In this document: one piece after another, positions 3,205 through 27,603 of the stretch
Numbering within the stretch: the stretch's first letter is position 1
Layout of the letters: each line of letters starts with the position of its first letter
NCBI GenBank assembly: GCA_964344655.1
Contig: CAYFOF010000003.1
Location: 428 to 64,427, forward strand
Direction: 5' to 3'
DNA length: 64,000 bases
Source of the DNA: Candidatus Woesearchaeota archaeon
Lineage (GTDB): Archaea; Nanobdellota; Nanobdellia; SCGC-AAA011-G17; PNOQ01
Position numbers and translations under genes: made by a program
Notes under the pieces: model-generated
The model's input: only the letters and a program-made list of their open reading frames with translations
Told to the model about the DNA's origin: nothing
Databases searched by the model: none

Positions 3205-6200
3205 CTAGATAGATTCAGAAAATAAATAATCTACAATTCTTTGCCATATTGATTTTTCTGAAGATAGTTTTGGAACTTTTTTTGTTACTGGTTCTTCAGT
3301 TTTTGTTATTGACTCTCCGGTTTTTGTTGAAGGTGTTGTCTCTTCATCTCTTATTGGTATAGTTGGATTTTCAATTCCTTCTGGGTCTTCTAATGTTTCG
3401 GGAAAATCCCTTATCTCTGGCAGGGTTTCTTCGTCTTTACAAGCTATTGTTTGAACTTGTGTGCAACCATCATTAATTGTTGCTCTATTTGCAGATCCAA
3501 ATGTTGATTCTGGAACACTACACTTCATGTCCATTTCGTTTAAACATATCTTATTATTTGAAAAAGTATTGCCCGTTGCTAGATGACTAATATCTACTCC
3601 TCTTTGATTATTTGAAATTTCATTAAAGTTAAATTCATTATTATTTGCGTTGTAAATACTTAACCCTACAAGAGGGTTGTCCTTTCCAACAATTTTATTG
3701 TTATCAAATATATTATCATGAGAATGTTTTGTTCCTATTCCGATTAATTCATTTATTATTGTATTATCTTTGATTATATTATCATTTGATAAATACATGT
3801 TTATTCCTACTATGTATTCTTTAATTGTACATCCATATATCGTTACTCCAGATCTTTGAGTTAGATCTATCCCTGCACCATTTTGGATTCCGTTTATTTC
3901 TGCATCGTGGCAATTGAATTTAATATTATCTGCCAATATTTTTACTCCATTATCTAAGTAATATTTTTTGGGACAAACCCATGTGTCTGTAGTTATTTCT
4001 TCTATTTCTGAATTGTATTCTGAACAATAGGTTTGATCAAAATCTGTGTGAGATATGTGTTCTGTGAAAACGTTTGGAAAATCATTGGCAACCGTTTCAT
4101 AAGAATATGCGCCATCGGTTCTTTTTAACTCTATACTTACTAATTCATATTGTCCGGTGCCAAGAGAATTATATATTTCTTTTCCACGGAAAGTTTCTTT
4201 TAGAGTGTGTGTTCCTGGTTTTAGGGTTTGTTTGCCATCATTAAAAAAACTATAAATTATGTCTCCTCCAGGAGTACGCAAATGACCACTTAACGAATAT
4301 TCTCCTTCTTCATATATTTCTACTTCTGCATTCCATTTTAATAGTTCATATTTTCCATCATCATTTAAGTCTTCAATTAAATAATCATAATCTCCTGTAA
4401 ATTCTGCCACTATGTTTTCGTGTTGAAAATCAGAATATTTGTATGAGCTTGTTACAAACGGAAAATTTCCACAATGTATTCTTGATGTTTCTTCTCTTGC
4501 ACACATAGATACCAATTCATAAGGCCCATCAAGTCCTGCACGATATATATTTGATCCAGGATGTAAAGAAGTTAATGTGTGTGTTCCAGGAATTAAATAA
4601 ATTCCAGAAGAGGGCTCAGAGTGGGAGGAATGTGTAATTTCATCTCTTTCTCCTAAATAAATCTGAGAGGTTAAATGATAATAACCTGGTTCAGTTACTT
4701 GTACATCTGAGTCTATAGCGAGGTAATCATACAGCCCATCTCCATCAGTATCGATAGGATAGTCTTCATAATTTCCTGTTATTAAAATTCCTGGTTCATC
4801 GAAATTTAAAGTGATTGTGTTAGATTCAAACCCGGCGGGGTAAGCACTTTCGGGTATGCCTTCGTATACAACTTTTAATTCGTGATCTCCTGAAGTGAAA
4901 AAATCTTTATCTATTTCTTGATGTGTGAAGCGTATTGGGATGATTTTTGCTCCATCTACATAAAAATAAAATGGTAACTTTCCACAATTTGCTCCAAGAT
5001 TGTCTGTGCATGTACCAGATAAATCCAATACACATTTTGTTGATATTGGAGAAACGGGATCTATTATACAATCTTCAGAAGAAATAGCAAAATCTAAATC
5101 TGATATTTCTCTTTGTTTTATTGCAATTGGCTCTATCGTATAGTATATAGAACTCTCTCCCAAAGATATGTCAACTCTAAAACTTATACTTTCACTAGAT
5201 ATTTGCCCTAGGTTAACTTCAACTTCAGGATAATTTATGGTTGGTTGAATTTCAATCCAACTACCGTCTGTTTTATAATAGGTATTTAATGATAATTGAG
5301 CTTGGCTTCCAAGATTATTTTCTATTATTCTGAACTTTAATATTTTGTCTTGATTAGAATTATAGTAAGACTCAGATTCAATAAATTCTATATGGGGGAA
5401 TTCATAGTCTTTAGAAGAGGATATTGTTGTTTCGCCTTCTATTGTATAGTTTCGTACATCATCGTAAGAAGGCATATGTAAATTAAATGAGTATGTGTCT
5501 CCAGAAGTTAATGTAAATAATTCTCCAATTTCTTCTCCGGGATTACGATATTTTTCGTGGTGATATTCATCAAATTCGTCTGTTGACACTTGAACACCAT
5601 TTATGTATTCTTTTAATACAGGATACATTGATCTGTCTTTTAGATCTTGTATAATGACATAATTTACTTCAGTAGGATACAGCACGCTTTTTAGTGTTAA
5701 AGCATATTCTCCACCCAAAGTATTATTTAAATATGGTTCTGTAAAATATAATATTTGGCTAAAGAAATTTGCGTTATATGTTTGTCCTAGATCTAGAGGT
5801 CCTTCGAAATATTGCTCTTTGTAAATATTATCGAAATTATCATCTTCGTCATATCCCCATATTCTTGATTCTACATCTAAAAATGTGAAGTCGTCATTGA
5901 ATGGTCTAAAATATTCTATTGTACCATCTGGGTTGTATGTTTTAGAAAATAAATGAGATGTTCTATCATAGGGTAAAACCCCCATACTTCCAACTGCAGT
6001 GATAGATCCAGTAAAAGGATCTATAAGATGTAGAAAAGTGTATATGCTGTCTTCTGAAACGGCGCCAAGTAAATTTGTTTTTGCATTAAAATGTGTTAGT
6101 TCTCCTTGTGAAAAATCTAAATTTGTGGAAGTTGAATCACTTACATCTTTTAATATATAATATTCTATATATTCTTCTTCTGCCATATTATAATATGGAG

Positions 6201-6279
6201 AAACATAACAACCAGATATGAATAATAGTGAGGATAACAGAAATATTACTGCCGATATTTGAAACTTATGTTGGATCAC
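3205..6279 (-). CDS. Large (1024 aa) secreted/lipobox surface protein with a C-terminal right-handed parallel beta-helix (PbH1/NosD-like) repeat region and a T/P/K-rich stalk
   Basis: N-terminal signal with lipobox-like LFISGC. Repeated N/D/G-x-I/V turns (DNTIINE, FDNNKIVG, NFNEISNN, TFSNNKI) typical of beta-helix repeats. C-terminal low-complexity TPSTKTGESITKTEEPVTKKVP. Overlaps the upstream subtilisin gene by 14 nt, so likely an operon. Confidence 0.7.
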   Translation of the reverse strand: MIQHKFQISAVIFLLSSLLFISGCYVSPYYNMAEEEYIEYYILKDVSDSTSTNLDFSQGELTHFNAKTNLLGAVSEDSIYTFLHLIDPFTGSITAVGSMGVLPYDRTSHLFSKTYNPDGTIEYFRPFNDDFTFLDVESRIWGYDEDDNFDNIYKEQYFEGPLDLGQTYNANFFSQILYFTEPYLNNTLGGEYALTLKSVLYPTEVNYVIIQDLKDRSMYPVLKEYINGVQVSTDEFDEYHHEKYRNPGEEIGELFTLTSGDTYSFNLHMPSYDDVRNYTIEGETTISSSKDYEFPHIEFIESESYYNSNQDKILKFRIIENNLGSQAQLSLNTYYKTDGSWIEIQPTINYPEVEVNLGQISSESISFRVDISLGESSIYYTIEPIAIKQREISDLDFAISSEDCIIDPVSPISTKCVLDLSGTCTDNLGANCGKLPFYFYVDGAKIIPIRFTHQEIDKDFFTSGDHELKVVYEGIPESAYPAGFESNTITLNFDEPGILITGNYEDYPIDTDGDGLYDYLAIDSDVQVTEPGYYHLTSQIYLGERDEITHSSHSEPSSGIYLIPGTHTLTSLHPGSNIYRAGLDGPYELVSMCAREETSRIHCGNFPFVTSSYKYSDFQHENIVAEFTGDYDYLIEDLNDDGKYELLKWNAEVEIYEEGEYSLSGHLRTPGGDIIYSFFNDGKQTLKPGTHTLKETFRGKEIYNSLGTGQYELVSIELKRTDGAYSYETVANDFPNVFTEHISHTDFDQTYCSEYNSEIEEITTDTWVCPKKYYLDNGVKILADNIKFNCHDAEINGIQNGAGIDLTQRSGVTIYGCTIKEYIVGINMYLSNDNIIKDNTIINELIGIGTKHSHDNIFDNNKIVGKDNPLVGLSIYNANNNEFNFNEISNNQRGVDISHLATGNTFSNNKICLNEMDMKCSVPESTFGSANRATINDGCTQVQTIACKDEETLPEIRDFPETLEDPEGIENPTIPIRDEETTPSTKTGESITKTEEPVTKKVPKLSSEKSIWQRIVDYLFSESI

Positions 6280-8677
6280 TTTCTACCCCCTTTCTTTGGA
6301 AAAATACACCCATCTCATCATTAAAATCGGTGGGTTTTTTTGACACATATATTTTGTAACTTCCAGTTTTGGGATAACTAGAAGTAAATCTAGACCTAAC
6401 AAGATCTATTCCGTTTGAAAAATAATATCCTGATTCTTGATTCGAACTGAGATCTTTTCCATTTATTGATTTTCCTTCAACTATGAATTCTTTTGCATCT
6501 GCTATTCTTAAATTAAGTGTTTTGTCTTGATTTTCTTGGAGGTACACAGAATCATACAAAAAATATTCTGAATCTTGAGTTCCAAACATTGTTGCAGTAA
6601 TAAGATATTGTTGTTCTCCCTTGAAGGCACCCACCATTGATTCGTCCCTTCCAAGATAAGCATATTTTCTAGAAGATGCAAAATCAGAGTTATATACAAT
6701 AAAGGAAAAAATGGGATTAACTATATAGTCTTGTCTATCTTCTATATTTATTGTAACTTTGCTTAATTTTGTAATTGTGTAGGGTATTACATGGGGCTTT
6801 CCATTTTGTATAAGCTTTATTTTTCCAAAAAATATTCCAGACTTTCCAGTCGCATCTATGTTAAAATTTAATGTTTTTTCATTTTCTCCCCTTACGTATA
6901 ATGTTGAAACTTCTGGAGTCATTATATTGTGTTGTGTAGTAATCCCCTCTTTTATATCAAAAAATTCATTTGCTGGCTCTACTATAACATCCAGTACAAG
7001 AGTTTCTAATCCAAGATTGGAAATAACTATATTATCATTTCCCGTTGGGTTTCCGGCTTCTACATTCACAGATAATGAAGATTTGTCAGTAGAAAATTTT
7101 AAATCGTTTGTTCCTGATAAATTTAATTGACCAGATCCTTGGTAGAGTGTGTTTGGAGATCCTGTAGCGCCCGGAGCGCCAAAATCTAATTCTGTTGCAG
7201 AAAGAGTTATTGCAGTTTTGATTTGTTGAGGAGTCCAATCTGGATTAGCTTGTTTTATTAGAGCTGCTGCTCCTGCAACATGAGGAGTTGCCATACTAGT
7301 ACCAGAAATTGCTATATGATCCCCATCTTTACATGAATTAGAAGATTGATAGGTTCCATGTTGAGATGCACAAATTTCCACCCCTGGTGCAACTATGTCT
7401 GGTTTTGATATTGATTCTCCGATTACTATTGCTGGACCCTTTGAACTAAAAGCTGCAATTGGAAATTCTTCTCTACAATAAGGCAAATACTCTCCGGTCC
7501 AAGAGATTGATCCTCCTTGGTTATACGCTTTACATGAGGCACCCACCGTAATTGCAGTTCTTGCAATTCCAGGAGTTTTTATTTTTCCGTAATCCCATGA
7601 ATTTCCTGCAGCAATTGCTGCAGTCACGCCTATTTCTGTTGCTGCGTCTATTGCTTCAGCCATTGAATCATAATATCTTGTGCTTCCTCCCAAACTTAAA
7701 CTTATTACGTCTAAATGATCTGAAAAATCATCATCCCCATTTGGATCCATTGAGGCTTCAATTCCTGCGATAATGCTTGCTGCCGATCCGCCACCAGAAG
7801 AACTTAAAACTTTGTAAGCATAAATTGTTGCATCTGGAGCAACTCCCTTCAATCCTAATCCATAAGCATCTATTCCTGCAGCAGTGGCAGCGCAATGAGT
7901 TCCGTGTCCATGATCATCAATTGGATCAGGATCTTCATTAATGAAATCGTACCCTCCTTCAACCTTGCAACCACTTCCAAAACACCCTCCCAAATCTGAA
8001 TGAGTGTAATCTACTCCAGTGTCTAATATTCCAATTGTGGTTCCTTGGCCAGTATAACCTTGATTCCAAAATGCATCTGAAGAAATAATTCCTGTTGATT
8101 GATCCAATGATGCAGTTACTCCAGTATTTGGCATTATCCTTTTAATATTTGGATTTTTTTCTAATTCATTTAATTCTTCGTTTGTAAGTTTCTTTTCTAT
8201 TACAATACCATTAATTGCTTTATAAAATTCTTTTTTAACGACGATATTTTCATTGATTTTTTTTAAATCATCTTTTAGTTTTTTTTGTTCTTCTTTTATT
8301 GTTATTTTTTGTGCTTCTTTTGTTGCTTTGTTGTGGAATTTATACAATGGTTCAGACTTTAGTTCTATTATATGCCCTATAGAATATTCTATATCTATTG
8401 GTAATGAATTTATATCTGTGTTTTTGAATATTATGTCTCCCTTGTCCCCCATTGAGATTGTTATTAAATCTTCAATTCCCTCTAAACGGAAAGTGTAATC
8501 TCCGTAGTTGAAATCATATGATGCTAAAGTTAATTCTCCTGTTTCTCTATTTAATATTTCAAAATCGACAATTTTTGCATTGTCTTGAGTGATTGCTTTG
8601 GAAAATTGTGGTTCAAATTGTGTACAACCACTCAAAAACAGAACTGAAATTAGTATTAATATTACACCCCTTTTCAT
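6266..8677 (-). CDS. Subtilisin-like serine protease (peptidase S8), lipoprotein-type signal peptide, with a C-terminal extension
   Basis: Catalytic triad in canonical order: Asp in GILDTGVDYTH, His in HGHGTHCAATAAG, oxyanion Asn in AIAAGNS, Ser in GTSMATPHVAGAAALI. N-terminal MKRGVILILISVLFLSGC is a lipobox. Confidence 0.9.
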   Translation of the reverse strand: MKRGVILILISVLFLSGCTQFEPQFSKAITQDNAKIVDFEILNRETGELTLASYDFNYGDYTFRLEGIEDLITISMGDKGDIIFKNTDINSLPIDIEYSIGHIIELKSEPLYKFHNKATKEAQKITIKEEQKKLKDDLKKINENIVVKKEFYKAINGIVIEKKLTNEELNELEKNPNIKRIMPNTGVTASLDQSTGIISSDAFWNQGYTGQGTTIGILDTGVDYTHSDLGGCFGSGCKVEGGYDFINEDPDPIDDHGHGTHCAATAAGIDAYGLGLKGVAPDATIYAYKVLSSSGGGSAASIIAGIEASMDPNGDDDFSDHLDVISLSLGGSTRYYDSMAEAIDAATEIGVTAAIAAGNSWDYGKIKTPGIARTAITVGASCKAYNQGGSISWTGEYLPYCREEFPIAAFSSKGPAIVIGESISKPDIVAPGVEICASQHGTYQSSNSCKDGDHIAISGTSMATPHVAGAAALIKQANPDWTPQQIKTAITLSATELDFGAPGATGSPNTLYQGSGQLNLSGTNDLKFSTDKSSLSVNVEAGNPTGNDNIVISNLGLETLVLDVIVEPANEFFDIKEGITTQHNIMTPEVSTLYVRGENEKTLNFNIDATGKSGIFFGKIKLIQNGKPHVIPYTITKLSKVTINIEDRQDYIVNPIFSFIVYNSDFASSRKYAYLGRDESMVGAFKGEQQYLITATMFGTQDSEYFLYDSVYLQENQDKTLNLRIADAKEFIVEGKSINGKDLSSNQESGYYFSNGIDLVRSRFTSSYPKTGSYKIYVSKKPTDFNDEMGVFFQRKGVESDPT

Positions 8678-12129: not shown

Positions 12130-12840
12130 ATGGATAAAATAAGTGAAGAATTGGCGGAACTGATCGGGATACATATTGGTGATGGATGTTTGAGTAATAA
12201 TGGAAGATATAAGGAGGTCGCATTGGCGGGAGACCTTTTAGAAGAAAAGTCATATTATGATGATTACGTAGTTCCTCTTTTTAATAAAATAATCGCAAAA
12301 AATATTTTAAATAAAGAAGTAAAGGCCAAGGCATACCCATCAACAGGAGTTTATGGATTTTTTATTTTTAATGGAGCTCTTTTTGATCATTATGAATCAT
12401 TGGGGATCACAGTGGGATCGAAAATACGAACTAAAATCCCAGAAATCTTTTTGTCAAAAAAATTAATTAAGCATGTCATAAGAGGAATTTTTGATACAGA
12501 CGGAAATTTGTATTTTGACAAAAATAGAACTGCTAAAAATCCTATTAATAAAGTTCCAATAATTAAGTTATCTAGTACATCTAATATTCTTATAGAACAA
12601 GTTTTTAATGAATTAGTTAAATTAGGATATCACCCAAGAAAGAAAAAACCGTATAAGGGAAAAAGAGATAAAAATCAAAACCATATACTTCTCATTTATA
12701 GAAAAAAAGATGTAAAAAGATATATAGAAGAAGACATAGGATTCAATAATTTAAAACATCAAGTAAAGTGGGACTTTTTCAAAAAATATGGATACTATGT
12801 CCCTCGCATGACTACAAAAGACAGACAAAAACTTTTATAA
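12130..12840 (+). CDS. Free-standing double-motif LAGLIDADG homing-endonuclease-like protein
   Basis: Two LAGLIDADG-type motifs, LIGIHIGDGCL (N-terminal) and IRGIFDTDGNLYF (mid-protein). 236 aa and a basic C-terminus are typical of single-chain monomeric LAGLIDADG enzymes. Confidence 0.75.
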   Translation: MDKISEELAELIGIHIGDGCLSNNGRYKEVALAGDLLEEKSYYDDYVVPLFNKIIAKNILNKEVKAKAYPSTGVYGFFIFNGALFDHYESLGITVGSKIRTKIPEIFLSKKLIKHVIRGIFDTDGNLYFDKNRTAKNPINKVPIIKLSSTSNILIEQVFNELVKLGYHPRKKKPYKGKRDKNQNHILLIYRKKDVKRYIEEDIGFNNLKHQVKWDFFKKYGYYVPRMTTKDRQKLL

Positions 12841-12866: not shown

Positions 12867-12952
12867 GCGGGTGTGCCAGAGTTCGGTCAAATGGGGTGGA
12901 CTTAAGATCCATCGGCTTAGTGCCTGCGCAGGTTCAAATCCTGTCACCCGCA
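12867..12952 (+). tRNA. tRNA-Leu (anticodon UAA), class II with long variable arm
   Basis: Acceptor GCGGGTG/CACCCGC plus discriminator A, anticodon stem GTGGA/TCCAT with loop CTTAAGA (anticodon TAA), long variable arm, and T-arm GCAGG-TTCAAAT-CCTGT. Length 86 nt. Confidence 0.85.
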
Positions 12953-16538: not shown

Positions 16539-19500
16539 TTATCTAAAAACTTCCATAAAAGTAGTTCCGCCAATTACAGCATGTGCTTGACTATTTGGAT
16601 GTAATCCGTCTCCATCGTATTCTGATTTTAAGTAACCATTTCCATCATCTAGTGGAGTGAATACATCTACTGCAAAATCAACATTATTATTTGTTAATAT
16701 CCAATTATTTATATCTTTAATTATTTTAACTGAATCACTTACGTCTTCACAGTTTTTACGCTCTTCGTACCATCTTCCTGCAGGAGTTAAGGTTAGAGCA
16801 ATTACTGTTTTTCCTTGAGCTTTTAGGTAAGAATATATTGTTTCTAATTTGTTTGCGTATGTTTCGTAATTTCCTTCACAAGGTATGTCATTTATTCCAG
16901 CAAATACTAAAACAGTGTCATAATTATTTAGGTTAAAGCTATCTACGGTTCCTCCCGCGCAATCTCTTGTTTGTTCTGATCCAAGAAGTCTTAATCTTAT
17001 ATTATCTATGCCACAACTAGAATATCCTCTATAATCTAAATTTATATTGTAGCTTTCTAAATTTGCTTTTAGGTGATTTGCATAACCTCCGTTGGCAGTT
17101 ATAGAATCTCCTATGGCCAAAACGTTTGTTATTTGTTTTGTGTTTTTGAAATTAGTAGTTGAAGTTCCGCAGGAAATAAATCCATAATATCTATCATTTA
17201 GTTTGTCTATGTTGTCGGTTGTTTTTGCAACAGTACATCCATAATTTGTATTTGTCGGATGGCAATTTGTATTCCAGCGATTTCCTCCTATTCTTTCAAT
17301 TTCTTCTACATTATTATTTGCATCTACAGAAACTCCTGTTACGACATCACAATGTCCTGATCTATCTGGGGTTAGTGTGTTATATGTGGTTGATCCAGAT
17401 TCAACTCTGCACAAAATGTCTCCAGGTTTTATATTGTTTATATTTGATATGTCATTTGTTTTACAACTATATTCATTTGGATTGTCTCTTAATTCTGTGA
17501 AATACACTGAATGTTTTCCACTTACTGGGAAATCTGAAACTCCGGCATTTTTCATAACGTAAGAAATAAATGCTCCAGACCATGGAGTATCTTCGCAATC
17601 CCAATTTGTTGTTGATGTTGTACTGAAATAAGATTGTAATTTATTTTGCATGTCGCATTCTTTTCTAGCTCCCTCTCCCCATGCAGAATATTCTGCTTTG
17701 GCAACGTCGACAATATCATTTTTACTTTCTAATTGTGTTGTGATAATATTTCTTGATGCAAAGCCGAATTTAGATTTTAAAACATTATATTTTTCCATTA
17801 CTCCTTCAACGTAATTTGGATGGTGCCCGCAAGTATATCCAGCGTATCCTCTTACTGCGGCCTCCCAACCATTGTAGGTTGTTGTGGGACCATCACATGT
17901 TTTTTGGAAACTCATTCCATTCTCTCTTTCACCCCAATAACGATAAGCATTACTTAAAACATAGACTCCACATTGAACATTTGCTTTGGTATTTGTTTTT
18001 AATCCGTCAACAGAGCTAGCCCCAGATACTCTTCCATCGGAACAAGCATCGTCAAATCCTGTTCCTGTAATTTGCATTAAACCTCTGGCTCCAGTGTTGG
18101 ATGTTGCACTTTGATCACACCCACTTTCGTGCATCATAATTGCTAAAACTAATAGAGGATCAATATCTTTTTCTTCTGAGTATTGATCTATGTATTGAGC
18201 GTATAACTGGCAATTGTTTCCACAATCGCATCTTCTGTCACCAATTACATTTTCTTTCGCATATTGTATTGCTCCGTAAACATCTCCTGTTCCAGTGACT
18301 GTTGTGGTTCCTCTAGAATCACATTTTGTGGCTTGAGTTTGTATCCATGAGATTATTTTATTGAAATCATTTAGTTCTGTTGTTTTTTCAAATTTTATTC
18401 CGTTTTCACATTTCATTTCAAGTTCATTTATGTTTGTATTGCTATCTACGTATGCCCTTAGAACAGTTTCAAATCCTTCCCACCAATAATATTTTTTACT
18501 TATTCCACCTTTTTTTTCTACGTAAAACCCATTCCAGTGAATTGTTTTATCGTTATCAAATATTAATAAATCGTTTCCTGCTCGTTTTATATCTAGTTCA
18601 AATGGTTGCATCCCGTTTTCTACTCTTTCATAAATTGCATAATATAACCATTCAGCTAATCTGGAAGGAGAAATACCATTTACTACGTTTTGACCATTAA
18701 ATGTATCATATTTATTTTTATCTCCTGTTTTATGTTCAATTATTACTTTATTCCAGTTGTTCATATTTTCCCTAATTACTTGGGCTATCCCATAGGATGC
18801 AGGGGAAAGAGAAATTTCTTCAAAATCTGGGGAGAATACTACTTCTTCATAATCTTCCCATTCTTGATTTGGTCTTTTTAGAGATAATTCTCCGTCATTT
18901 ACCCTAAATTGTGTGTTTGATGAAGTTGGTTCAACTTTTATTTCAATTTCTTTATCTGTTAATTCCGAATATGCTAATTGATCTCTTATTTCTGAAGTTG
19001 CTCTACTATCTTCTTGTCCGCAAAACTCTAATATGTCTAGTATATTTGCCCCACCAGATTCAAATTTGGATTTTCTATTATCTCCTTTGTGTACGGTAAT
19101 ATGATCATCATCCTTTCCTGGAGGGTTGTTTACAGTTTCTACTATTTCTTTTACTCCGCCAGAAAAATCTTTTCCAACTAAACCTTCACAAACGTCAGAA
19201 AGAATTGTTGCGTATTTTGAATTTTTTATTAAATTACAATCTTCATTTTGATATATTTTTATCCATTCTTCATTGTTTGTTGGACCTTCTAATTTGTATT
19301 CCCACGTTCCAAATAAATATCTGAATGAGGCTCTATCGCTATTACTATTTGAATCATCAGCGTCGTAAAATATAGAACATTGAGCAGATTGTTCATCAAG
19401 TTTTCTTTGGGCTTCTTGTTGGGTTTCTTCTATTTTTTTGTATCCTGCCAGGGTTATTAGATGTTCTGCTGCTAATGAATGTGATTTTTCTATCACTTCA

Positions 19501-22500
19501 AAATCTCTTGCTCTGTCAATTAAATCATATAATTTTCCTATAAATTCTATTTTTGTTTGACGATCTCTTGGATCTATTCCTAGTGATTCGAATGCAAGGG
19601 ATTGGTATTCTTCTTCTGAATTATCATCTAATGTTTGTTGTATTTCGTTTCTTCTTTCTTGTTCTTGTGCTGGAGTATATTCATTATTTCTTTGAGCTTC
19701 TGCGATTACTTCTGATAAATTATATGAAGTATCATGTAATGATTGTTTTATTCCAGCAGAATAAAGATAGCAATTTCCTAGCTCTCTTCCTAAATCATCT
19801 TGTCCACAAGTTCCTACAAATTCCCATTCATCTCCCACACCATCGGGGTCGTATGCTGCACAAACTCTTTTTACTCCAGAAGTAAATAATCCAGGAACAT
19901 AACTTCTTTCTCTTGGAACACATTGTTCTGCAGTTTGGATATTATCGTTTAATGTTGATTTTATTAATTCATCTTTTAGATATTGAGTTGAGAATCCACT
20001 TGATGTACTTCCGAATCCACATTCTTGAATACCATCTATGATTATACACATTTCTACAAATCCTGGAGGTAAATTTGGAAGTGTGAAACTTTGATCTACA
20101 CTTTCTCCTCTTCTTAGGATTCTATCTCCTTGGAATAATCCAGGATCGTTAACTGTGATTGTTTGTCCGTTTATGTCTTTCAAAACTACTTTATACCTTA
20201 TGTCTTTATTTCTTCCAGCGTATATGTGATAGTAAATTCTGTATGTTGATTGCCCGGTTCCTATTGTAGCTTGAGTGTTTATGAAACCAGATTGTAAATT
20301 TACTTCTGAAGATCTATCTTCTTCAAACCATCCTGTGAATTGCGGTGGACTCTCTGGTGATGTTAATTGACCCAGTAGATCTCCTCCTGCGGGGGTTCTT
20401 CCGAATATTGCTTGTTTACAAAGTGTGCTTCCTACTTCGCTGGAGGTTCTTCCTCTGAATGCTGAGAATGCTGAAGATGCATAACTCTTTGTGAAAAAGT
20501 TTACAGAATCTCCAAGTCTACTCCAACTAGATTCCCATAATTTATATTCTCCTCCGCCGGATGAACCAAATACTGCTGTTGAGATGAAACTTTGTATCTT
20601 TCCAAAGACATTTACTAATGCTAAAGCTTCTTCCCATAAAATATTACACATGTATAAACTTCTTATTTCATTACAGATTCCTACAGATTCCCCACTTGTT
20701 TTGGCTACTTCTAGACAATCTCTGAAACTACCAAACATAGAATAGATGTTTTCTAATCCTGCATGTATTCCAGTTAAACAAATTGGAAGAATATCTCCAT
20801 TGCCCCATCCTAGTGTGATTGAACCAATGATTCCTTTTTGTACTACAGATCCTGCATCTCCCCCAAGATCCCATCTCCCTCCAAGATTAAATCTTGATGG
20901 CGGACACATTACAGGATCACAAACATTGTATAAAATTTTACAATCTGTAGAAGACATTGAATCTTCACATTGTCCATTTGGATCTAATCTTGATCCTATA
21001 TTTCCTTCGTATTGTTCAATTAATATGTCTTGACCGTTGAATTTTACTATTGATCCCTTGTCTTTTGTAGCTAGTGGAACTGCTTGTTGATATGTTCTTT
21101 CTATTTCATAAGCTAACCTATCATTTTCTTTTAATCTTGTATCTGGATGTAATTGTGTTGAGGACATTACTAGTTTATCATCTTCTGTGTCTGGAATTCC
21201 GTCTGAGCCAATATTCCATACTGAAAATCTATATCCTCCTCTTCTTTCTGCATTTTCATCTACTTGTATGTAGTTTGCAAAACTTAGTGATTCTTCTCCA
21301 CCATTATATTGGAATGGGATTAATGTTGGAGTGTTAGTTTCATCGTCGAAGTAAATTCTTGGAACTGTTGTATATTGAGTTAAGAAAGATCCTTCTGAAA
21401 GTCCGGCAAGGTAAATGTTTCCGTTTGCTTCATAAAAGTCTCCTCTGGTACTTGAAAGGATTTCACTTCCATCCATTATTGGGGTTACAGTTATTTTATT
21501 TCCTTCCGTATCTATTATGTATTTGTTATCTCCATCTGTGTAAAGCGGGAATGGGTTATTGTTTGGTCTGGAGATTATATCTCTTCCTTGAAGTGTTTGT
21601 TGTGCACGAGTGTCTTGATCTGTGAAGAATGCATTTGAAGGAGTTGTTAAAGAACCAGTTCCAACACTTAATCTGTATCTTAATTCAATTTCTTTTATTT
21701 CTTTATCAGAAAGTTCTTGATCTCCTATTTCTTCTCTTATTGATCGATCAATTTTATTTACTTTTTGTAGTTGTTCGTCAAAGTCTAAACTGCCGTCTTG
21801 CCAAACTTCTTCATCATACATTGATTCGTATAATTCTTGACCTGAAAGATCTCCGTATTTGTGTAATAATGTTAAGTTTGTTACATCCATGTTTAATCTT
21901 GTAGCTATTCCTTGTAAAGATTCTTCATCTTCAAAATCTACATCTTTGAATAATTCATCTAATTCGTTTTTTGTTCTTTGAGAAATTTCTACTCTTTCTT
22001 CTATTTCATTTTTAGCATCGTTGAAACAATTTATTGAGGCTTGAGTGTTAGTCCCGTGTACACTTTCACAGTCTTCTCTTACTCTATTTTCAATTAATCT
22101 TTTTGCAGGATTTGAAAAGAAAGCATTTTTTATTGTTAGTGCAGCAAATGTTGCATAACAAACTCCTTTCCAGGTTGAAATTATACTTCCTAGTCTATTT
22201 ATTATTCCGTCTAGTCTAGAAAGTGTTCTATCTGTTGAGGCAATCATCTTATCAATTTCTTCAGGAGTCCATTGCCATAATCTTTTTTCTATTGGCAAGT
22301 GAATTGTAAATTGAGAAGTTCCATAATTATCTCTTGTTCCTGGAGTTACAGTTATTATTGCACTTTCAACTACATCTATTTTATCTATGTAAATGAATCT
22401 AGATTGAGTACCGAAAGGAACTTGAGTTTTTTTGCCTATTTCTAATGTTCTTGTATTTGCTTCTGGTCTGTTTCTTGAATTTAATTCTGTGAATTCTTGT

Positions 22501-24017
22501 TGGATCACAACTTCATTTGAGCTTATTGAAGTTATTGCCCATCTATATTTATTTCCTGACTCGTCAATTATCTCTGGAGAAATGTATTCTCCGATTGTTC
22601 CTTCATCAAAATCGAAATTTATTATGCTATCATCAAAACTGTTTAATACAGCATAATTTACTTTACTTTGTTCTGCATCATCATCAATTGATATTAAAGT
22701 TATTAACATATCATCTGCTTTGACATAATTGTATTTGTTTTGTAATCTTAATTGAGAATTATCTAATCTTTCTTGATATTTTTCTTGCAATGAAGGATCT
22801 GCTTGTATTGCATTTAGTAAGAAAAGATTTGCTTTTTCTATTGAATTAAGACCTTCGTAAGCCTCAGAAATTTTTACATAGTATTCTGCTTCTTCTGTTG
22901 AAGTTTCTGCTAGTTGTAATGCAGATCTGTAATCTTCAATTGCTTGACAGTATAACTGAGTTGAAGAAGCAGCGCTTAATTGTTCACTTGGTAGATATCT
23001 GAAATTTGCACACGGATCTGAAATTTCACTTCCCTCTTCATATGCTATGAATAATTCATTTCCATCTGTGTCAACTATTATTAATCCGTCAGAAAATATT
23101 TCTTTTACAACCCATTCACTGTTTAATTTCATTCCAGCAACATAATCTTTTGTTGATGAAACAATTTCTTCTCCTAAATCTTCTTCAATTAGTAACCTTG
23201 CTTTGTTTTCGTTTTTACTTACTCTTTCTAGTTTTAGATTAATTCTACTTTCCAGTAAACTTGGAGCCCCTGGGAGTGTAACTTCTTTTGGTTCTCCTCC
23301 AGCTGTTAATTTAACTTGATTAGCAAATCCTATTTTTCTTTTATTTCCGTCGTATAATTGTACTCTTGCGGTGTTTCCATTTATTTCTATAACTCTTATG
23401 TACCCTCTTCCGCCCCATAAAGCACTATCTTTTAGTTCTTTGTTTAGCCATGCTTCTTCATCCTTTTGAGGAGCGAGATTGAAACTTTGTGTACTTAAAA
23501 CTCCAAATCCAGATTCAACATCAAAATAAATTCTTGCATCAACTTCAATTGTTATTTCTTCAGGAACTTTTTCTTCTAGTGGTTGACGTTTTAGTCTTAC
23601 AGTTGTGTATCCTAGATCTATGTTTCCATTTGCATCAACTACTAATTCTTCTCCTTTTGGTCTTACTAGAGAAGTTAATCCTCCTTGAATGTATTTACTT
23701 GATTCTCGGTTTGGGATTAAATCTATATGTTTAATTTTCATATCTCCGTAAAATGGAGCCCCCGCAGGAGATTGAGAATCACCGAATAATGCAGTGCCTA
23801 AAGTTTTACCAGAAAGAAATACGTGAACATTTGCTGCTCTGTGTTGGAATAAATCAGAAGTTATTGGAGTTGGGCTTACGTGATCTACGTTTATTGTAAG
23901 TGCTTCTCCTAAGTCTCTTGTGTCTCCTTCTATTGGATCGTTGTAATATCCAAAGGAAGTTACTGGAGTACTAACTATTAAAATTATACAAATTATTGCG
24001 TATATTGCTTTATTCAT
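16539..24017 (-). CDS. Giant secreted protein (2492 aa): about 1900 aa N-terminal region of unknown function followed by lytic transglycosylase (SLT), CHAP-like Cys/His peptidase and SGNH/GDSL hydrolase domains
   Basis: Signal peptide MNKAIYAIICIILIVSTPVTSFG. SLT motif AIMMHESGCDQ...GARGLMQIT (coding around 17.9-18.25 kb). CHAP-like Cys region WSGAFISYVMKNAGV and His region SGHCDVVTGV (around 17.3-17.6 kb). SGNH block I AIGDSITANGG and block V DGLHPN (16.54-17.14 kb). The start codon overlaps the stop of the upstream gene (ATGA). Confidence 0.85.
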   Translation of the reverse strand: MNKAIYAIICIILIVSTPVTSFGYYNDPIEGDTRDLGEALTINVDHVSPTPITSDLFQHRAANVHVFLSGKTLGTALFGDSQSPAGAPFYGDMKIKHIDLIPNRESSKYIQGGLTSLVRPKGEELVVDANGNIDLGYTTVRLKRQPLEEKVPEEITIEVDARIYFDVESGFGVLSTQSFNLAPQKDEEAWLNKELKDSALWGGRGYIRVIEINGNTARVQLYDGNKRKIGFANQVKLTAGGEPKEVTLPGAPSLLESRINLKLERVSKNENKARLLIEEDLGEEIVSSTKDYVAGMKLNSEWVVKEIFSDGLIIVDTDGNELFIAYEEGSEISDPCANFRYLPSEQLSAASSTQLYCQAIEDYRSALQLAETSTEEAEYYVKISEAYEGLNSIEKANLFLLNAIQADPSLQEKYQERLDNSQLRLQNKYNYVKADDMLITLISIDDDAEQSKVNYAVLNSFDDSIINFDFDEGTIGEYISPEIIDESGNKYRWAITSISSNEVVIQQEFTELNSRNRPEANTRTLEIGKKTQVPFGTQSRFIYIDKIDVVESAIITVTPGTRDNYGTSQFTIHLPIEKRLWQWTPEEIDKMIASTDRTLSRLDGIINRLGSIISTWKGVCYATFAALTIKNAFFSNPAKRLIENRVREDCESVHGTNTQASINCFNDAKNEIEERVEISQRTKNELDELFKDVDFEDEESLQGIATRLNMDVTNLTLLHKYGDLSGQELYESMYDEEVWQDGSLDFDEQLQKVNKIDRSIREEIGDQELSDKEIKEIELRYRLSVGTGSLTTPSNAFFTDQDTRAQQTLQGRDIISRPNNNPFPLYTDGDNKYIIDTEGNKITVTPIMDGSEILSSTRGDFYEANGNIYLAGLSEGSFLTQYTTVPRIYFDDETNTPTLIPFQYNGGEESLSFANYIQVDENAERRGGYRFSVWNIGSDGIPDTEDDKLVMSSTQLHPDTRLKENDRLAYEIERTYQQAVPLATKDKGSIVKFNGQDILIEQYEGNIGSRLDPNGQCEDSMSSTDCKILYNVCDPVMCPPSRFNLGGRWDLGGDAGSVVQKGIIGSITLGWGNGDILPICLTGIHAGLENIYSMFGSFRDCLEVAKTSGESVGICNEIRSLYMCNILWEEALALVNVFGKIQSFISTAVFGSSGGGEYKLWESSWSRLGDSVNFFTKSYASSAFSAFRGRTSSEVGSTLCKQAIFGRTPAGGDLLGQLTSPESPPQFTGWFEEDRSSEVNLQSGFINTQATIGTGQSTYRIYYHIYAGRNKDIRYKVVLKDINGQTITVNDPGLFQGDRILRRGESVDQSFTLPNLPPGFVEMCIIIDGIQECGFGSTSSGFSTQYLKDELIKSTLNDNIQTAEQCVPRERSYVPGLFTSGVKRVCAAYDPDGVGDEWEFVGTCGQDDLGRELGNCYLYSAGIKQSLHDTSYNLSEVIAEAQRNNEYTPAQEQERRNEIQQTLDDNSEEEYQSLAFESLGIDPRDRQTKIEFIGKLYDLIDRARDFEVIEKSHSLAAEHLITLAGYKKIEETQQEAQRKLDEQSAQCSIFYDADDSNSNSDRASFRYLFGTWEYKLEGPTNNEEWIKIYQNEDCNLIKNSKYATILSDVCEGLVGKDFSGGVKEIVETVNNPPGKDDDHITVHKGDNRKSKFESGGANILDILEFCGQEDSRATSEIRDQLAYSELTDKEIEIKVEPTSSNTQFRVNDGELSLKRPNQEWEDYEEVVFSPDFEEISLSPASYGIAQVIRENMNNWNKVIIEHKTGDKNKYDTFNGQNVVNGISPSRLAEWLYYAIYERVENGMQPFELDIKRAGNDLLIFDNDKTIHWNGFYVEKKGGISKKYYWWEGFETVLRAYVDSNTNINELEMKCENGIKFEKTTELNDFNKIISWIQTQATKCDSRGTTTVTGTGDVYGAIQYAKENVIGDRRCDCGNNCQLYAQYIDQYSEEKDIDPLLVLAIMMHESGCDQSATSNTGARGLMQITGTGFDDACSDGRVSGASSVDGLKTNTKANVQCGVYVLSNAYRYWGERENGMSFQKTCDGPTTTYNGWEAAVRGYAGYTCGHHPNYVEGVMEKYNVLKSKFGFASRNIITTQLESKNDIVDVAKAEYSAWGEGARKECDMQNKLQSYFSTTSTTNWDCEDTPWSGAFISYVMKNAGVSDFPVSGKHSVYFTELRDNPNEYSCKTNDISNINNIKPGDILCRVESGSTTYNTLTPDRSGHCDVVTGVSVDANNNVEEIERIGGNRWNTNCHPTNTNYGCTVAKTTDNIDKLNDRYYGFISCGTSTTNFKNTKQITNVLAIGDSITANGGYANHLKANLESYNINLDYRGYSSCGIDNIRLRLLGSEQTRDCAGGTVDSFNLNNYDTVLVFAGINDIPCEGNYETYANKLETIYSYLKAQGKTVIALTLTPAGRWYEERKNCEDVSDSVKIIKDINNWILTNNNVDFAVDVFTPLDDGNGYLKSEYDGDGLHPNSQAHAVIGGTTFMEVFR

Positions 24018-25987
24018 TGTACTTCTGGGTATATGAAATTTTGATTATTTGCATTTGCATTCATGTTATTGAAAACATCTAACATTTCTGATTGTGTTCT
24101 TGGAGTTTTATCATATGGGACGTAAACTGTTAGTTTATTTCTATTGAAAACATCAGCATACCATTCGTATGCAGCTCCGCCGACAATAACATCCGTTAGT
24201 GTTCCTCCATCAAATTCGGATTCAAAACATTTTTCTTCACTTGAGAATAATCCAAGTATTCCTGGACGTGGAACTTTTACACAACTTATTTCTGAATCGG
24301 ATTTAAGTTCTATGTTTGTATTTTCTTCAGTTAGTAAGTATGAAGTTACTTGGTAGTTTCCGTCGGTTAATTTTATTTCAGTGTCTTCATTTGTTACCAT
24401 AGTTATGTATCCATTATCTAGGTTTTCAAATTGTACTACCGCTTGTTTGTCATTTACGGAACTAGTGAATCCATCTCCAAGTTGAACTTCTTTTATTTCT
24501 AATTCTAGAGTGTAGTGTTTGTCTAGTAGAACTGTAGTTTCTTGATCTATGTTTGTTGAAATAAATTCTCCGCCAAGCTCATAGCCATCTTTTTGTGCAA
24601 TTATTGCACCGTTTAAACATGGAGGGAAGTTTGCATTTATTTTTCCTTGTTCATTTGTTTCTCCAATATAACAAGTAGATGTGAAACATTTGTATAGTAT
24701 ACTTGTATCTTCAATATCTCTGAATGTTTTGCTGTCATAAACTGTTACTTCCATTGGTTTTACTTTGTTTTCACAGAAATTATCTGTAAATTCATTTGAA
24801 TATTCTGTGTTGAATACTTCTCCCTCATATGCTCTTGGATTGTTGTTATCTATGATTACTGTTGTTGCGTATTGGAAAGTTAATCCAGTATTGTCGTCGG
24901 TTAATCCAATTAATACTGGGTATTTTACGTCGTAAACAAAATGGTAATTGTTTAAACAGAAAAATAAGTTTAGGAATTTACTTATCTCTGGAGTTTGTTG
25001 TGTTAGAGCATCTCCTACTAAAATTTCTCCTTTTGTTGGTGAGACATCCATAAACATTGGGAAGTCGGTTGAATAGGTGAATGATTCAGTTATATATTCG
25101 GGTTTTGTTATGTCTATTTCAAAATAATCTCTATTTGTTGGAAGATATGCAGATGAAGTTGGGTCTTTTAAGGTTAGGGCAGCTATGTTTGTGTTTGTTA
25201 TTGATTTAAGATCTTCTAGAACTCTTGATTTTTGCCAAACTTTTCTTTCACATGAAAACTCTGTTGTTGAATATGGAATTTCTTCGTATGTTGCCATTAG
25301 ATCAATTGTTTTTTCTTCTAGGAATAATTCTTCATTTTCTTTTTCCATAACTTCTTTTGCAAGATTGTATAGTTCTCCTAATTTTGAATCTGCTATTACC
25401 ATTAGTTTATCTATATCAGTATAAACTTCTTTTAGTGAAATTTGTAAATCAGAATTTAATTTTACTTGAACATTGTTTTGGTTTATTTTTACTTCTGAAG
25501 ATAATATTTCTGGATAGTTTATTGTGAATCCATCTTCTTCAAAACTTTGAGCAAAATATTCGCAGTTGTTGAAATTATTGTTTATGTATTCTTCAAGTTC
25601 TCTTTCCATTTCTTCTATAGTTGGAATTTGTTGTTGTTGGATTCCATTTGAGGTTTCATAAAACCAATATGCAACTTCATGGATTGAGTAAAGATTTAAT
25701 GTATTTGAGAATTCATCATTTATTGTTCTTTTGTAAGGTTCTTCTGGAAGGTTTATGTATCCTCCTTGAGAAGCTAAAATGTTTATTCCATCTTGAGTTA
25801 TTCCTTCTAAACATACATCAAAATAGTCTTTTGCGGGTCTTATTTGTTCTGGAATTATTATAGAATTCATCTCTGATTCAAAATCTTGTTCTAATATTTG
25901 AGATCTGAAGGAAAATAGTATTGTAAATACTGCTAAAATGACAATTCCTAGAATTATAAATACAGTAACTTGACCCCTCTTTTTCAT
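24014..25987 (-). CDS. Hypothetical 657-aa protein with an archaeal class III (type IV prepilin-like) signal peptide
   Basis: N-terminal MKKRGQVTVFIILGIVILAVFTILF: basic residues, Gly, then a 20-residue hydrophobic helix is typical of archaeal prepilin/archaellin signal peptides processed after the KRG. The rest is rich in T/N/E/Y with no motif recognized. The stop overlaps the start of the giant gene. Confidence 0.65.
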   Translation of the reverse strand: MKKRGQVTVFIILGIVILAVFTILFSFRSQILEQDFESEMNSIIIPEQIRPAKDYFDVCLEGITQDGINILASQGGYINLPEEPYKRTINDEFSNTLNLYSIHEVAYWFYETSNGIQQQQIPTIEEMERELEEYINNNFNNCEYFAQSFEEDGFTINYPEILSSEVKINQNNVQVKLNSDLQISLKEVYTDIDKLMVIADSKLGELYNLAKEVMEKENEELFLEEKTIDLMATYEEIPYSTTEFSCERKVWQKSRVLEDLKSITNTNIAALTLKDPTSSAYLPTNRDYFEIDITKPEYITESFTYSTDFPMFMDVSPTKGEILVGDALTQQTPEISKFLNLFFCLNNYHFVYDVKYPVLIGLTDDNTGLTFQYATTVIIDNNNPRAYEGEVFNTEYSNEFTDNFCENKVKPMEVTVYDSKTFRDIEDTSILYKCFTSTCYIGETNEQGKINANFPPCLNGAIIAQKDGYELGGEFISTNIDQETTVLLDKHYTLELEIKEVQLGDGFTSSVNDKQAVVQFENLDNGYITMVTNEDTEIKLTDGNYQVTSYLLTEENTNIELKSDSEISCVKVPRPGILGLFSSEEKCFESEFDGGTLTDVIVGGAAYEWYADVFNRNKLTVYVPYDKTPRTQSEMLDVFNNMNANANNQNFIYPEVQ

Positions 25988-26049: not shown

Positions 26050-27603
26050 TTATTTTCTCCATCTTCCTTTAATGATTGGAAGTGCTTGAACTAATCCTCC
26101 TTCATATAGTACCCCATTGCCCGCCATTGAAGTTGAAGGTTGTCCTAATTGATAATCTAAAGGTATTAATGAACTTGTTCCAACAGACATTGATCCTTTG
26201 CTTACTTCTAGTTGATGAACGTGCCCCATAATGACTTTTCCATAGGCTTCTATTAAACTTTTTAGTGAGCCTCTTCCGCCATTTTTTCCTTTGTGACCAT
26301 GGGCACCACATTGATATCCCCAATACATTGCGTCTTCACCAAGTCTTAGGAATCTTAGATTATTTGGGATTTTATTTTCAAAAAGTTTTCTTATTGCTAC
26401 TTCAAGTGCATTATCTTTAACAGAATTAAAAGATTCAGCCCCCAATATTCTGTGTGCCATTTTTCTATTTTGTGGATCACTTCTATAAGCTCCTTTTGCT
26501 AACCAACGATATAACATATCGTCATGATTGGAGTAGTTAACGATTACTTCACCTTTTCCTGCTCTTTTTGCTTTCTCTATTAGATATTCTCCAGTTTCAT
26601 AAAGCTCTTCTTCAAGACTTCTAACTCTTCTTTCATGTTTGTCTGTTTGTGCAACTTCGTCATCTAGTTCATGAAGATTTATTGATTGAGCACTGAATGC
26701 GTCGTGAATGTGTATGTGTTCTGGAGCAAAATAATCTATCATTTCGTTGTTTGCTTCATCTGTTTCTGGATCTAATTCAGAAACGTGGGAATCTCCAAGA
26801 ACTAAAGCAACTGTTTTTGCTTTGTGGGGTTTTACTCCTTTTGCGTACTTTATTCCTAAATCTATAAATGTTCCATTTGCTTGAGCAGGAACTATTCTTG
26901 GAAGGTATAATTTTTCATCTAAAACATCAACAACTACAAATCCAAATTCATGCTCTTCATCAGCATCATATCCCCTTCTATTTGTAGTGTTATAACTTGG
27001 ATGAGTGCAACATCCTGTCGTTAACATTAATTTTGGGTATTCTCCAGATTGTCCTTTTGCTACAGGAGTTAATACTTGTTTTGGGCTTGGCATAACAATT
27101 GAACTTCCGCCGTGTTTTTTTGTATATTTTCCTTTCCCAGTTAAAGGATTTTGATTTTGAGAGGGTTCTGGAACCGCTATTAGTCGTACATTTGTATTTA
27201 ATCTTTCTCCCGTTGTTTCATAATTAGTATTTGGCATTTCATTCCAAAAAAAATGCATTGGCATTTTTGGAGATCTTCCTTTTTCTCTCCAATTATCTCT
27301 CTTTTCTTGTTCTCTTTCTTTTTGCATTTCTAATCTGCCTTTTGCATTACTTTCCATATATACATCATCTCTTTTGTGGAAAAATGGATGTAATTCAATT
27401 TCATTAACGTAAGATCCGGGAATTGCACAAATTCTTAATTCCCCTTCGTTATCTCGAACATATCTTTCTAAATTTTTTATAAGTGGTAAATTTGGAGCAC
27501 CTTTAGAAGAATCTCTTCCATAGTGTTCAGCAGAATGAGGATTTTGAATGCCTTGCGCAGCAGTTATAGCAATAGTTTTAGTTTTAGAATTATCACCCTC
27601 CAT
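26050..27603 (-). CDS. Two-domain protein: N-terminal region of unknown function plus C-terminal calcineurin-like metallophosphoesterase domain
   Basis: Phosphoesterase motifs LGDSHV (GDxH), HIHDAF, YSNHDD (GNHD/E-like) and GHVHQ (GHxH) in residues about 260-470. 517 aa. Confidence 0.7.
   Translation of the reverse strand: MEGDNSKTKTIAITAAQGIQNPHSAEHYGRDSSKGAPNLPLIKNLERYVRDNEGELRICAIPGSYVNEIELHPFFHKRDDVYMESNAKGRLEMQKEREQEKRDNWREKGRSPKMPMHFFWNEMPNTNYETTGERLNTNVRLIAVPEPSQNQNPLTGKGKYTKKHGGSSIVMPSPKQVLTPVAKGQSGEYPKLMLTTGCCTHPSYNTTNRRGYDADEEHEFGFVVVDVLDEKLYLPRIVPAQANGTFIDLGIKYAKGVKPHKAKTVALVLGDSHVSELDPETDEANNEMIDYFAPEHIHIHDAFSAQSINLHELDDEVAQTDKHERRVRSLEEELYETGEYLIEKAKRAGKGEVIVNYSNHDDMLYRWLAKGAYRSDPQNRKMAHRILGAESFNSVKDNALEVAIRKLFENKIPNNLRFLRLGEDAMYWGYQCGAHGHKGKNGGRGSLKSLIEAYGKVIMGHVHQLEVSKGSMSVGTSSLIPLDYQLGQPSTSMAGNGVLYEGGLVQALPIIKGRWRK

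Follow-up and report, generated by a model that had tools for sequence, protein, structure and literature searches.

The Woesearchaeota and Pacearchaeota rank with the most widespread of the uncultured archaea, and their genomes suggest that they depend on other cells. Very large proteins of these lineages are already on record, as fam00969, from AR20 and from Lake A genomes, and the cited sections of these accounts remark on their size and their SLT (lytic transglycosylase) domain only (Castelle 2015 for AR20; PMC8204110, 2021; Vigneron 2022, PMC9723730). In the same sections such proteins are defined by the SLT domain and described as wall-binding or wall-degrading, with a bacterial target proposed for them (PMC8204110, PMC9723730). 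The parts of this literature at hand give no account of a protein body, its domain layout, a partner protein, a membership that mostly lacks SLT, or a depletion of N-glycosylation sequons. The subject of the present analysis is a two-gene locus of this kind on a 64,000-nucleotide stretch of DNA from a Candidatus Woesearchaeota archaeon (assembly GCA_964344655.1, contig CAYFOF010000003.1; hereafter the window), where a giant gene (16539..24017, minus strand) follows a partner gene (24014..25987, minus strand). The fam00969-type proteins reach ~3,000 residues, are exported, carry SLT and are restricted to the Pacearchaeota and Woesearchaeota, all of which holds for the giant protein of the window, and the AR20 copy (our locus L034) was recovered with the profile of its conserved core, placing both in one family. 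Here, however, SLT appears as an optional tip (13 of 63 species-level members), and what defines the family is a body of ~1,500 residues together with an obligate partner.

Other described systems resemble this locus in part. Polymorphic toxins (CdiA, Rhs/YD, MafB) likewise join a conserved N-terminal region for delivery or presentation to a variable C-terminal functional domain, but the system in the window shares no sequence or repeat similarity with them and has no pre-toxin motif, immunity gene or cassette arrays, and many of the family's tips are binding repeats or nothing recognisable. SlaA/SlaB of the Sulfolobales are also encoded as an operon of a very large, anchorless exported protein and a smaller membrane-anchored partner; here, in contrast, the gene order is reversed, the partner would be anchored at its N-terminus, the body is Cys-rich and sequon-poor, and no homology was detected. 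With the archaeal type IV pilins (EppA/PibD substrates) the partner has in common a [KR]-G-Q sequence followed by ~20 hydrophobic residues, including the +1 Gln, whereas it is ~650 residues long against ~100–200, gave no profile match and has no pilus genes nearby in the window. Giant exported multi-domain proteins of DPANN episymbionts, the SPEARE proteins of Nanohaloarchaeota, were reportedly described by Hamm et al. in 2019, with host contact and envelope breaching as their proposed roles; compared by description only, they belong to a different lineage and carry different domains (protease, adhesion, restriction endonuclease).

The giant gene is a single ATG-to-stop open reading frame (ORF) of 2,492 amino acids, as seen from the ORF list and the translation, and a family hidden Markov model (HMM) matched it from end to end, with no other copy in the window. 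At ~33% GC about 7.5% of random codons are stops, and by simple arithmetic 2,492 open codons would arise by chance with a probability of ~e^-190; given a length that chance does not explain at this GC content and hundreds of homologues, the ORF is real. An earlier note, prepared by a model from the letters and the ORF list, had given the gene these same coordinates and had singled out 18300–24017 (residues 1–1906) as a long N-terminal region with no recognisable domain. It had also taken the small ORFs on the opposite strand for artefacts, and indeed none of the 12 found there (62–110 residues) shows any sign of being a gene.

Judged from sequence comparison, residues 1–1905 are not an orphan region but are mostly the conserved body by which a very large family is defined. 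When the stretch of highest conservation (residues 1005–1425) was used as query in an exhaustive HMMER profile search, 1,064 representative clusters (50% identity) were found; 915 reach E<=1e-30, and the members found are mostly 1,800–3,300 residues long with the core at ~1200–1650. Scanning species-representative genomes, one for each species, with a pattern gave 356 family loci; the best 80 of these, for which taxonomy was obtained, all belong to the Woesearchaeota, Pacearchaeota or Nanoarchaeia and include the complete AR20 genome. The closest named relative of the giant protein is from Candidatus Woesearchaeota. The idea of a rare family was considered and rejected, the 7–9 proteins returned by word-indexed searches having been shown by the exhaustive search to be an artefact of sensitivity.

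In alignments of 40 and of 62 members, collinearity extends from the signal peptide (residue 1) through the whole of the core. Against the six homologues from the first search (7-sequence alignment), identity is 0.5–0.7 over residues 1–330, 551–650 and 1000–1400 and declines after ~1430, while over residues 1530–1905 it is 0.10–0.22 with many gaps. As far as these alignments tell, the 1,900-residue region is thus made up of a conserved body (1 to ~1530) and a fast-evolving, clade-specific stretch (1531–1905; 18303..19427, minus strand, as are all parts of the giant gene given below). For the latter, phmmer found matches in only three of 243 local family sequences (P0002, P0018 and L008), all from near relatives, and Pfam gave none.

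Two unusual relatives were met in these searches. The most distant one from the first search (P0007, at L006:849-9062; 2,737 residues, 23% identity) has an M23 peptidase inside the N-terminal body and not at the C-terminus, so the body tolerates enzyme insertions. A frameshifted member without the first ~777 profile positions (L004:7858-11064) comes from a metagenome contig on which the remaining genes have a bacterial look (bL32, PlsX, acyl carrier protein, RNase III with a double-stranded RNA-binding domain, SMC and RecG wedge); the gene may have been transferred to a bacterium, the contig may be a chimera, or the source may be an archaeon rich in bacterial genes.

The partner gene encodes 657 residues and lies directly upstream of the giant gene, its stop codon overlapping the start of the giant gene in the sequence ATGA. 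Among the 59 loci that retain enough upstream DNA, all 59 have a partner homologue (~650 residues) directly upstream and on the same strand, and no further gene was found to be consistently linked to the two across loci. The N-terminus of the partner, MKKRG-QVTVFIILGIVILAVF, fits an archaeal class III (type IV pilin-like) signal. In the 59 homologue ORFs with a readable N-terminus, [KR] precedes G (51), A (6) or S (2); the next residue is Q (57) or A (2), and in every one of them a hydrophobic run of 18 residues comes after it. A Gln at +1 is reported, in the section cited, to be essential for the archaeal pilin-specific peptidase EppA (PMC4390842). The partner is much larger than ordinary pilins and the window contains no pilus genes, so its signal is pilin-like at the level of this pattern only, and its comparison with Pfam, NCBIfam, PHROGs and PDB profiles produced no match. 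At seven of 80 loci, e.g., L045:8640-9308, the giant gene is succeeded, ~10 nt further on and in the same orientation, by a gene for a predicted membrane protein of ~223 residues; it is absent from this window and may be a lineage-specific third component.

In the giant protein only the N-terminus, MNKAIYAIICIILIVSTPVTSFG, has a hydrophobicity that would suit a membrane helix or signal peptide: residues 4–22 have a Kyte-Doolittle (KD) value of 2.22 in a 19-residue window, and every other segment stays at <=1.45. A signal peptide or N-terminal anchor is accordingly placed at residues 1–24 (23946..24017), where the family consensus has an equivalent N-terminus. With this as the only strongly hydrophobic segment, the giant is predicted to be exported and to have no membrane anchor beyond its signal, which agrees with the signal peptide recognised in the earlier note. 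The description of the region as rich in D, E, G, S, T and N is true in a mild sense only, as residues 1–1000 are led by E (9.1%), then I (8.7%) and L (8.6%), ahead of S (7.6%) and D (7.4%), and the 1000–1430 core is rich in G (12.3%), S (10.2%) and C (3.5%). The protein is acidic (isoelectric point, pI, 4.65).

An extracellular location is also suggested by N-glycosylation sequons (N-X-S/T), whose observed numbers were compared with expectations from shuffles. The giant has 2 sequons against 24.4+/-3.9 expected and the partner 0 against 7.5+/-2.4; two further exported proteins of the window are similarly poor in them, a NosD-like protein (2 against 10.8 expected) and an S8 subtilase (1 against 6.9), while its cytoplasmic proteins show no depletion. 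Across the family the ratio of observed to expected sequons is 0.36 in 136 giants and 0.30 in 57 partners, against 0.74 in conserved neighbouring genes. To judge from this pattern, surface proteins of these archaea seem to be under selection to escape N-glycosylation; it fits exported proteins that do so and speaks mildly against a classical S-layer glycoprotein.

The absence of recognisable domains from residues 1–1905 was borne out, as searches of Pfam, NCBIfam, PHROGs and PDB sequences gave no match above threshold there. With Pfam at E<=1 only sub-threshold noise was seen in this region (TPR_8, LMBR1, spectrin repeat), matches of the giant in NCBIfam and PHROGs were confined to the C-terminal enzymes, and family profiles of 7 and of 40 sequences run against PDB sequences found the SLT part or nothing, with no match in residues 1–1905. 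A tblastn search of the giant against 50,697 phage records was also without a match. Foldseek comparison of a 1,200-residue AlphaFold2 model with PDB and BFVD returned noise (TM <0.1), including matches to Tc toxins at a probability of 0.02–0.05.

The body was modelled with AlphaFold2 from the 40-sequence alignment (residues 25–1224; mean predicted local distance difference test, pLDDT, 70; predicted TM score, pTM, 0.40; adding 24 to tile numbers gives protein numbers). An earlier model of the core alone (1005–1425), from a shallow alignment of 12 sequences, was poor (pLDDT 48). Because the pTM is low, the arrangement of the domains relative to one another is undefined. The structure prediction that the earlier note had proposed indicates eight distinct, non-repeated domains with no credible match among PDB or viral structures, and ~40% of the body is predicted to be helical. 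When the modelled domains were aligned with one another by hhalign as a test for internal repeats, the best probability was 29%, i.e., they are mutually unrelated; the repeated cadherin or PKD modules that would have marked a conventional adhesin were looked for and not found, the domains being all different and no adhesin family being detected.

The first domain (D1) is beta-rich, probably with two to three sub-domains, and spans residues 40–325 (23043..23900; tile 16–301, pLDDT mostly 65–87); it has an identity of 0.5–0.64 to the six homologues and an invariant W201-x-GRGY motif. It is followed by two TPR-like hairpins (D2; residues 344–428, 22734..22988), the patch that the earlier note had read as helical and possibly TPR-like. 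That reading is upheld by four helices modelled at residues 352–428 with a pLDDT of 80–91, and Pfam TPR_8 gives a sub-threshold match at 377–409 (E=0.2; 12.4 bits, the cut-off being 25.7). Strands of a beta domain (D3) were modelled at residues 431–577 (22287..22727; pLDDT 73–89). Where this domain meets a predicted 50-residue helix there is an IEKR motif (residues 576–579, 22281..22292), whose residues I576, E577, K578 and R579 do not vary in the 7-sequence alignment and are each conserved to at least 90% among 62 sequences; that it might be a processing site is only a guess. The long-helix region (D4), opening with the ~50-residue helix, covers residues 585–808 (21594..22265; tile 561–784, pLDDT 57–80), and residues 551–650 are among the most conserved of the protein (identity 0.57–0.71). 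A mixed beta/alpha domain (D5) occupies residues 826–1002 (21012..21542; tile 802–978, pLDDT 56–86).

The hallmark of the family is the Cys- and Gly-rich helical core (D6; residues 1017–1224, 20346..20969), whose helices are modelled at moderate to low confidence. It is the most conserved part of the giant (identity 0.59–0.74), with a CDPVxCPxSR motif, and nine Cys are invariant in the core across the 62-sequence alignment, as are a number of Gly and Pro positions. The scattered Cys remarked on in the earlier note are thus real features of the family, and one pair co-varies: positions 1043/1070 are C/C in 53 of the 62 sequences and F/G in the other nine, which form the sub-clade of the window protein. 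This is the pattern expected of a disulfide lost as a pair, and it may go back to a single evolutionary event. The same sub-clade has lost Cys at residues 34/66, 255/302/315, 934/949 and 1043/1070 (about 20808–23918), where 82–85% of the wider family has Cys, and these losses look like whole disulfides lost in one lineage. The core is followed by a beta-sandwich with a YHIYAG motif (D7; residues 1226–1333, 20019..20342; pLDDT 67–81), for which Foldseek against PDB found generic Ig-like sandwiches (ApaG, DUF1425, GH2 Ig-like; E 3e-4, target-normalised TM 0.34–0.43). A small Cys-containing domain of mixed model confidence closes this part (D8; residues 1340–1425, 19743..20000; Cys 1366, 1386, 1404 and 1416). 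The conserved body ends with a helical segment from 1426 to ~1530 (19428..19742), over which the conservation profile decays; the family consensus runs on to KAxLxLLRGxAYxxL and then breaks up.

Beyond the clade-specific stretch the protein of the window carries three enzyme domains. The SLT lytic transglycosylase (residues 1942–2035, 17913..18194; Pfam PF01464, E 2.5e-11) has an intact ES...GLMQ motif, and PDB profiles match MltC and goose lysozyme. It is followed by DUF2272 (residues 2138–2250, 17268..17606; PF10030, E 6e-16), which we take to be related to NlpC/P60-like peptidases and which is probably a peptidase or amidase, and by a GDSL/SGNH hydrolase with GDSIT and DGLHPN blocks (residues 2299–2482, 16572..17123; PF13472, E 3.1e-13). 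SGNH esterases of the Ape type strip off O-acetyl groups that block lytic transglycosylases, and by analogy the SGNH domain of the giant probably removes such groups from the path of its SLT domain. Archaea have no murein, so the target of a tip that opens walls must be bacterial. Peptidoglycan hydrolases made by archaea that kill bacteria have been reported in the section cited of PMC12352652.

These tips differ from member to member. The first relatives end in SLT alone, SLT+DUF2272 or, as in the window, SLT+DUF2272+GDSL, and 17 large members contain SLT (5), DUF1615 (3), ankyrin repeats (2), and NosD/beta-helix, M23, leucine-rich repeats (LRR) and YkuD (1 each). In the tails of 63 species-level members, SLT was found in 13, peptidase M15_4 in 2, and amidase_3 (with SH3), DUF1615, DUF2272 and trypsin in 1 each, the rest having nothing recognisable. 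On this comparison SLT is an accessory, exchangeable domain and it is the body that defines the family. The logic of polymorphic effectors, to which the earlier note had pointed, is in this respect evident: a long conserved N-terminal body bears a swappable C-terminal tip (SLT, M23, YkuD, M15, amidase_3, ankyrin, LRR, beta-helix).

Our preferred reading, with a probability of roughly 0.5, makes residues 1 to ~1530 the structural body of a surface apparatus that is built from two proteins and specific to the Woesearchaeota and Pacearchaeota. The giant would be exported by its N-terminal Sec-type signal, for which the single hydrophobic N-terminal segment, the co-varying Cys pair and the depletion of sequons argue together, and would fold outside the cell into about eight different, disulfide-stabilised domains. 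Having no anchor of its own, it would be held at the surface by the co-translated 657-residue partner, whose N-terminus would serve as a membrane anchor or, once a prepilin peptidase has cleaved it, allow the partner into a type IV pilus-like fibre. The body would act as a scaffold or as a reach-and-dock module, and its far end would present residues 1531–1905 and the exchangeable tip. In the window the tip would be a three-enzyme kit in which SLT cuts the glycan strand of peptidoglycan, SGNH probably de-O-acetylates it and DUF2272 probably acts as peptidase or amidase, and with this kit the archaeon may open the wall of a bacterial neighbour, be it host or prey, at the point of contact. The steps that we infer are that the partner retains the giant at the surface, that the body is a scaffold and that bacteria are the target.

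A number of observations weigh against this reading. Pilin N-terminal profiles match neither the partner of the window nor 57 family members, the size of the partner is four to five times that of an ordinary pilin, and neither pilus assembly genes nor a prepilin peptidase occur in the 64-kb window. The physical interaction of giant and partner we infer from gene linkage alone. A recognisable cell-wall hydrolase was found in only 13–18 of the 63 species-level tails; with so few members carrying one, the body must have a task that does not depend on cutting peptidoglycan, and for most lineages the target may be something other than bacteria. A bolder version, in which body and pilin-like partner form a previously undescribed organelle of cell-to-cell contact and penetration, is tentative and on present evidence rather unlikely. 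As the host-interaction machine of the Woesearchaeota and Pacearchaeota, it would have the partner mount the giant on a pilus-like fibre or at its base, the core at 1017–1224 engage or insert into the envelope of the partner cell, IEKR serve as a processing or activation site, and the tips tune the device to different hosts.

The two genes might instead encode the main lattice of the cell envelope, an S-layer-like coat with the giant as canopy, the 657-residue protein as membrane stalk, and enzymes or repeats as optional additions. Such a role would suit an operon that is present in 59 of 59 testable loci and vertically inherited among ribosomal-protein genes and TFIIB, the majority of members that lack any enzyme, and a giant protein that is acidic, exported and without an anchor of its own; moreover, we know of no S-layer gene annotated for the Woesearchaeota or Pacearchaeota. 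We nevertheless regard it as a rather unlikely explanation. Archaeal S-layer proteins are typically glycoproteins, whereas sequons are strongly depleted here, a Cys-rich body with invariant Cys positions is unusual for such proteins, and the giant is far longer than known S-layer subunits. Tips specific to each member also suit an interaction device better than a lattice, and neither Pfam, PDB profiles nor Foldseek against PDB detected similarity to an S-layer family. The conserved body and varying C-terminal domains would equally be expected of a released polymorphic toxin or bacteriocin, whose body binds a bacterial receptor and carries the lytic tip through the envelope while the partner helps in export or release, and the long helices, the Gly-rich hydrophobic helical core and the bacteria-killing archaeal hydrolases already mentioned (PMC12352652, section cited) are in keeping with this. 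Yet no RHS, YD, FHA or other toxin repeat and no pre-toxin motif was seen (Pfam at E<=1, repeat test), and the genes downstream are convergent, without cassette arrays or immunity-like genes. Some 70% of members lack a toxin-like tip, the peptidoglycan of many bacteria can be reached from outside so that translocation is unneeded, and the Foldseek matches to Tc toxins are noise. A released toxin is therefore doubtful, and we consider it quite unlikely.

The conservation of the core, far higher than that of the rest of the giant and kept in all members whatever their tip, would also be explained if residues 1017–1425 were themselves an undiscovered enzyme or ligand-binding module, acting for instance on surface polymers of a host, with everything else accessory. 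Seven polar residues are invariant there (D1034, S1041, R1042, N1073, S1120, W1128 and Y1179; 62 sequences, tile numbering +24), but most invariant positions are Cys, Gly or Pro, which suggests a structural role, and neither a catalytic motif nor a fold match was found (PDB profiles, Foldseek), making this improbable. A conventional repeat adhesin, made of cadherin, PKD or Ig arrays and ending in a lytic tail, is very improbable: the giant is beta-rich and exported, and residues 1226–1333 resemble a generic Ig-like beta-sandwich, but Pfam shows no adhesin family even at E<=1, the eight modelled domains are mutually unrelated (hhalign best 29%), and so much of the body is helical (~40%). Least likely is a gene derived from a phage or virus, i.e., a tail fibre, tape measure or virion-associated lysin. 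The C-terminal SLT(+DUF2272) weakly matches phage tail lysozyme families (phrog_2013, 2e-6; phrog_1259, 0.003) and the gene two positions upstream matches phrog_1745, although the latter is linked in only four close loci. Residues 1–1905, where the earlier note had suspected a link to phage tail, fibre or tape-measure proteins, remain unmatched in PHROGs and phage GenBank records, IMG/VR viral contigs hold no relative of the family, and Foldseek of the giant model against BFVD gave no credible match. The locus, moreover, is chromosomal and syntenic, with a housekeeping neighbourhood conserved across distant lineages. Taken with the negative searches, this synteny effectively refutes a phage origin of the N-terminal region.

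The window (GC ~31%) is archaeal, with genes for TFIIB, ribosomal protein S8e, GatD/GatB, deoxyhypusine synthase and Kae1/TsaD. Among the family loci S8e is a neighbour in 41 and TFIIB in 34, further ribosomal-protein-like neighbours (identified from sequence only) recur, and LSM and L37e are present in annotated loci. As the same housekeeping neighbourhood recurs in distant relatives, the giant gene is a vertically inherited chromosomal gene, neither viral nor mobile. Downstream of it lie convergent genes of the other strand, for which no conservation is seen in the family at large.

Several other genes of the window deserve mention. Just upstream of the operon, at 26050–27603 (minus strand), a 517-residue gene product matches the 'DNA transfer protein' phrog_1745 over 366 residues (E 1e-72) and has the metallophosphoesterase motifs GDSH, NHDD and GHVH. 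A phage-like gene is odd in an archaeal chromosome, and it is probably not part of the giant/partner system, being linked to it in closely related loci only. An overlapping pair at 3205–6279 and 6266–8677 (minus strand) encodes the NosD/right-handed beta-helix protein (1,024 residues) and the S8 subtilase (803 residues) whose sequons were counted above; both are exported and acidic, and the pair may be another surface or secreted module. A free-standing LAGLIDADG_3 ORF of 236 residues (12130–12840, plus strand) overlaps the end of a 360-residue ORF and adjoins tRNA-Leu (12867–12952), and a LAGLIDADG gene is also found near the operon in locus L003. At 207–1232 (minus strand) the window encodes FabH (3-oxoacyl-ACP synthase III) of the bacterial type in an archaeal genome, in line with the bacterial fatty-acid genes that the section cited of PMC8204110 reports for Woesearchaeota.

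For this family, the 'giant transglycosylase' is recast: it appears to be a conserved two-gene surface system with a body of ~1,500 residues, an obligate partner with a pilin-type signal and exchangeable tips, and the idea that peptidoglycan cleavage defines the family is corrected. In the body, the partner and the tips, proteomics, antibody work, cryo-tomography and structural studies would have concrete objects to aim at. The giant and its partner would be a tangible and widespread candidate for the attachment machinery of the Woesearchaeota and Pacearchaeota, and the kind of tip carried by each lineage, whether a cell-wall hydrolase, ankyrin repeats or LRR, or none, may serve as a read-out of its interaction partner.

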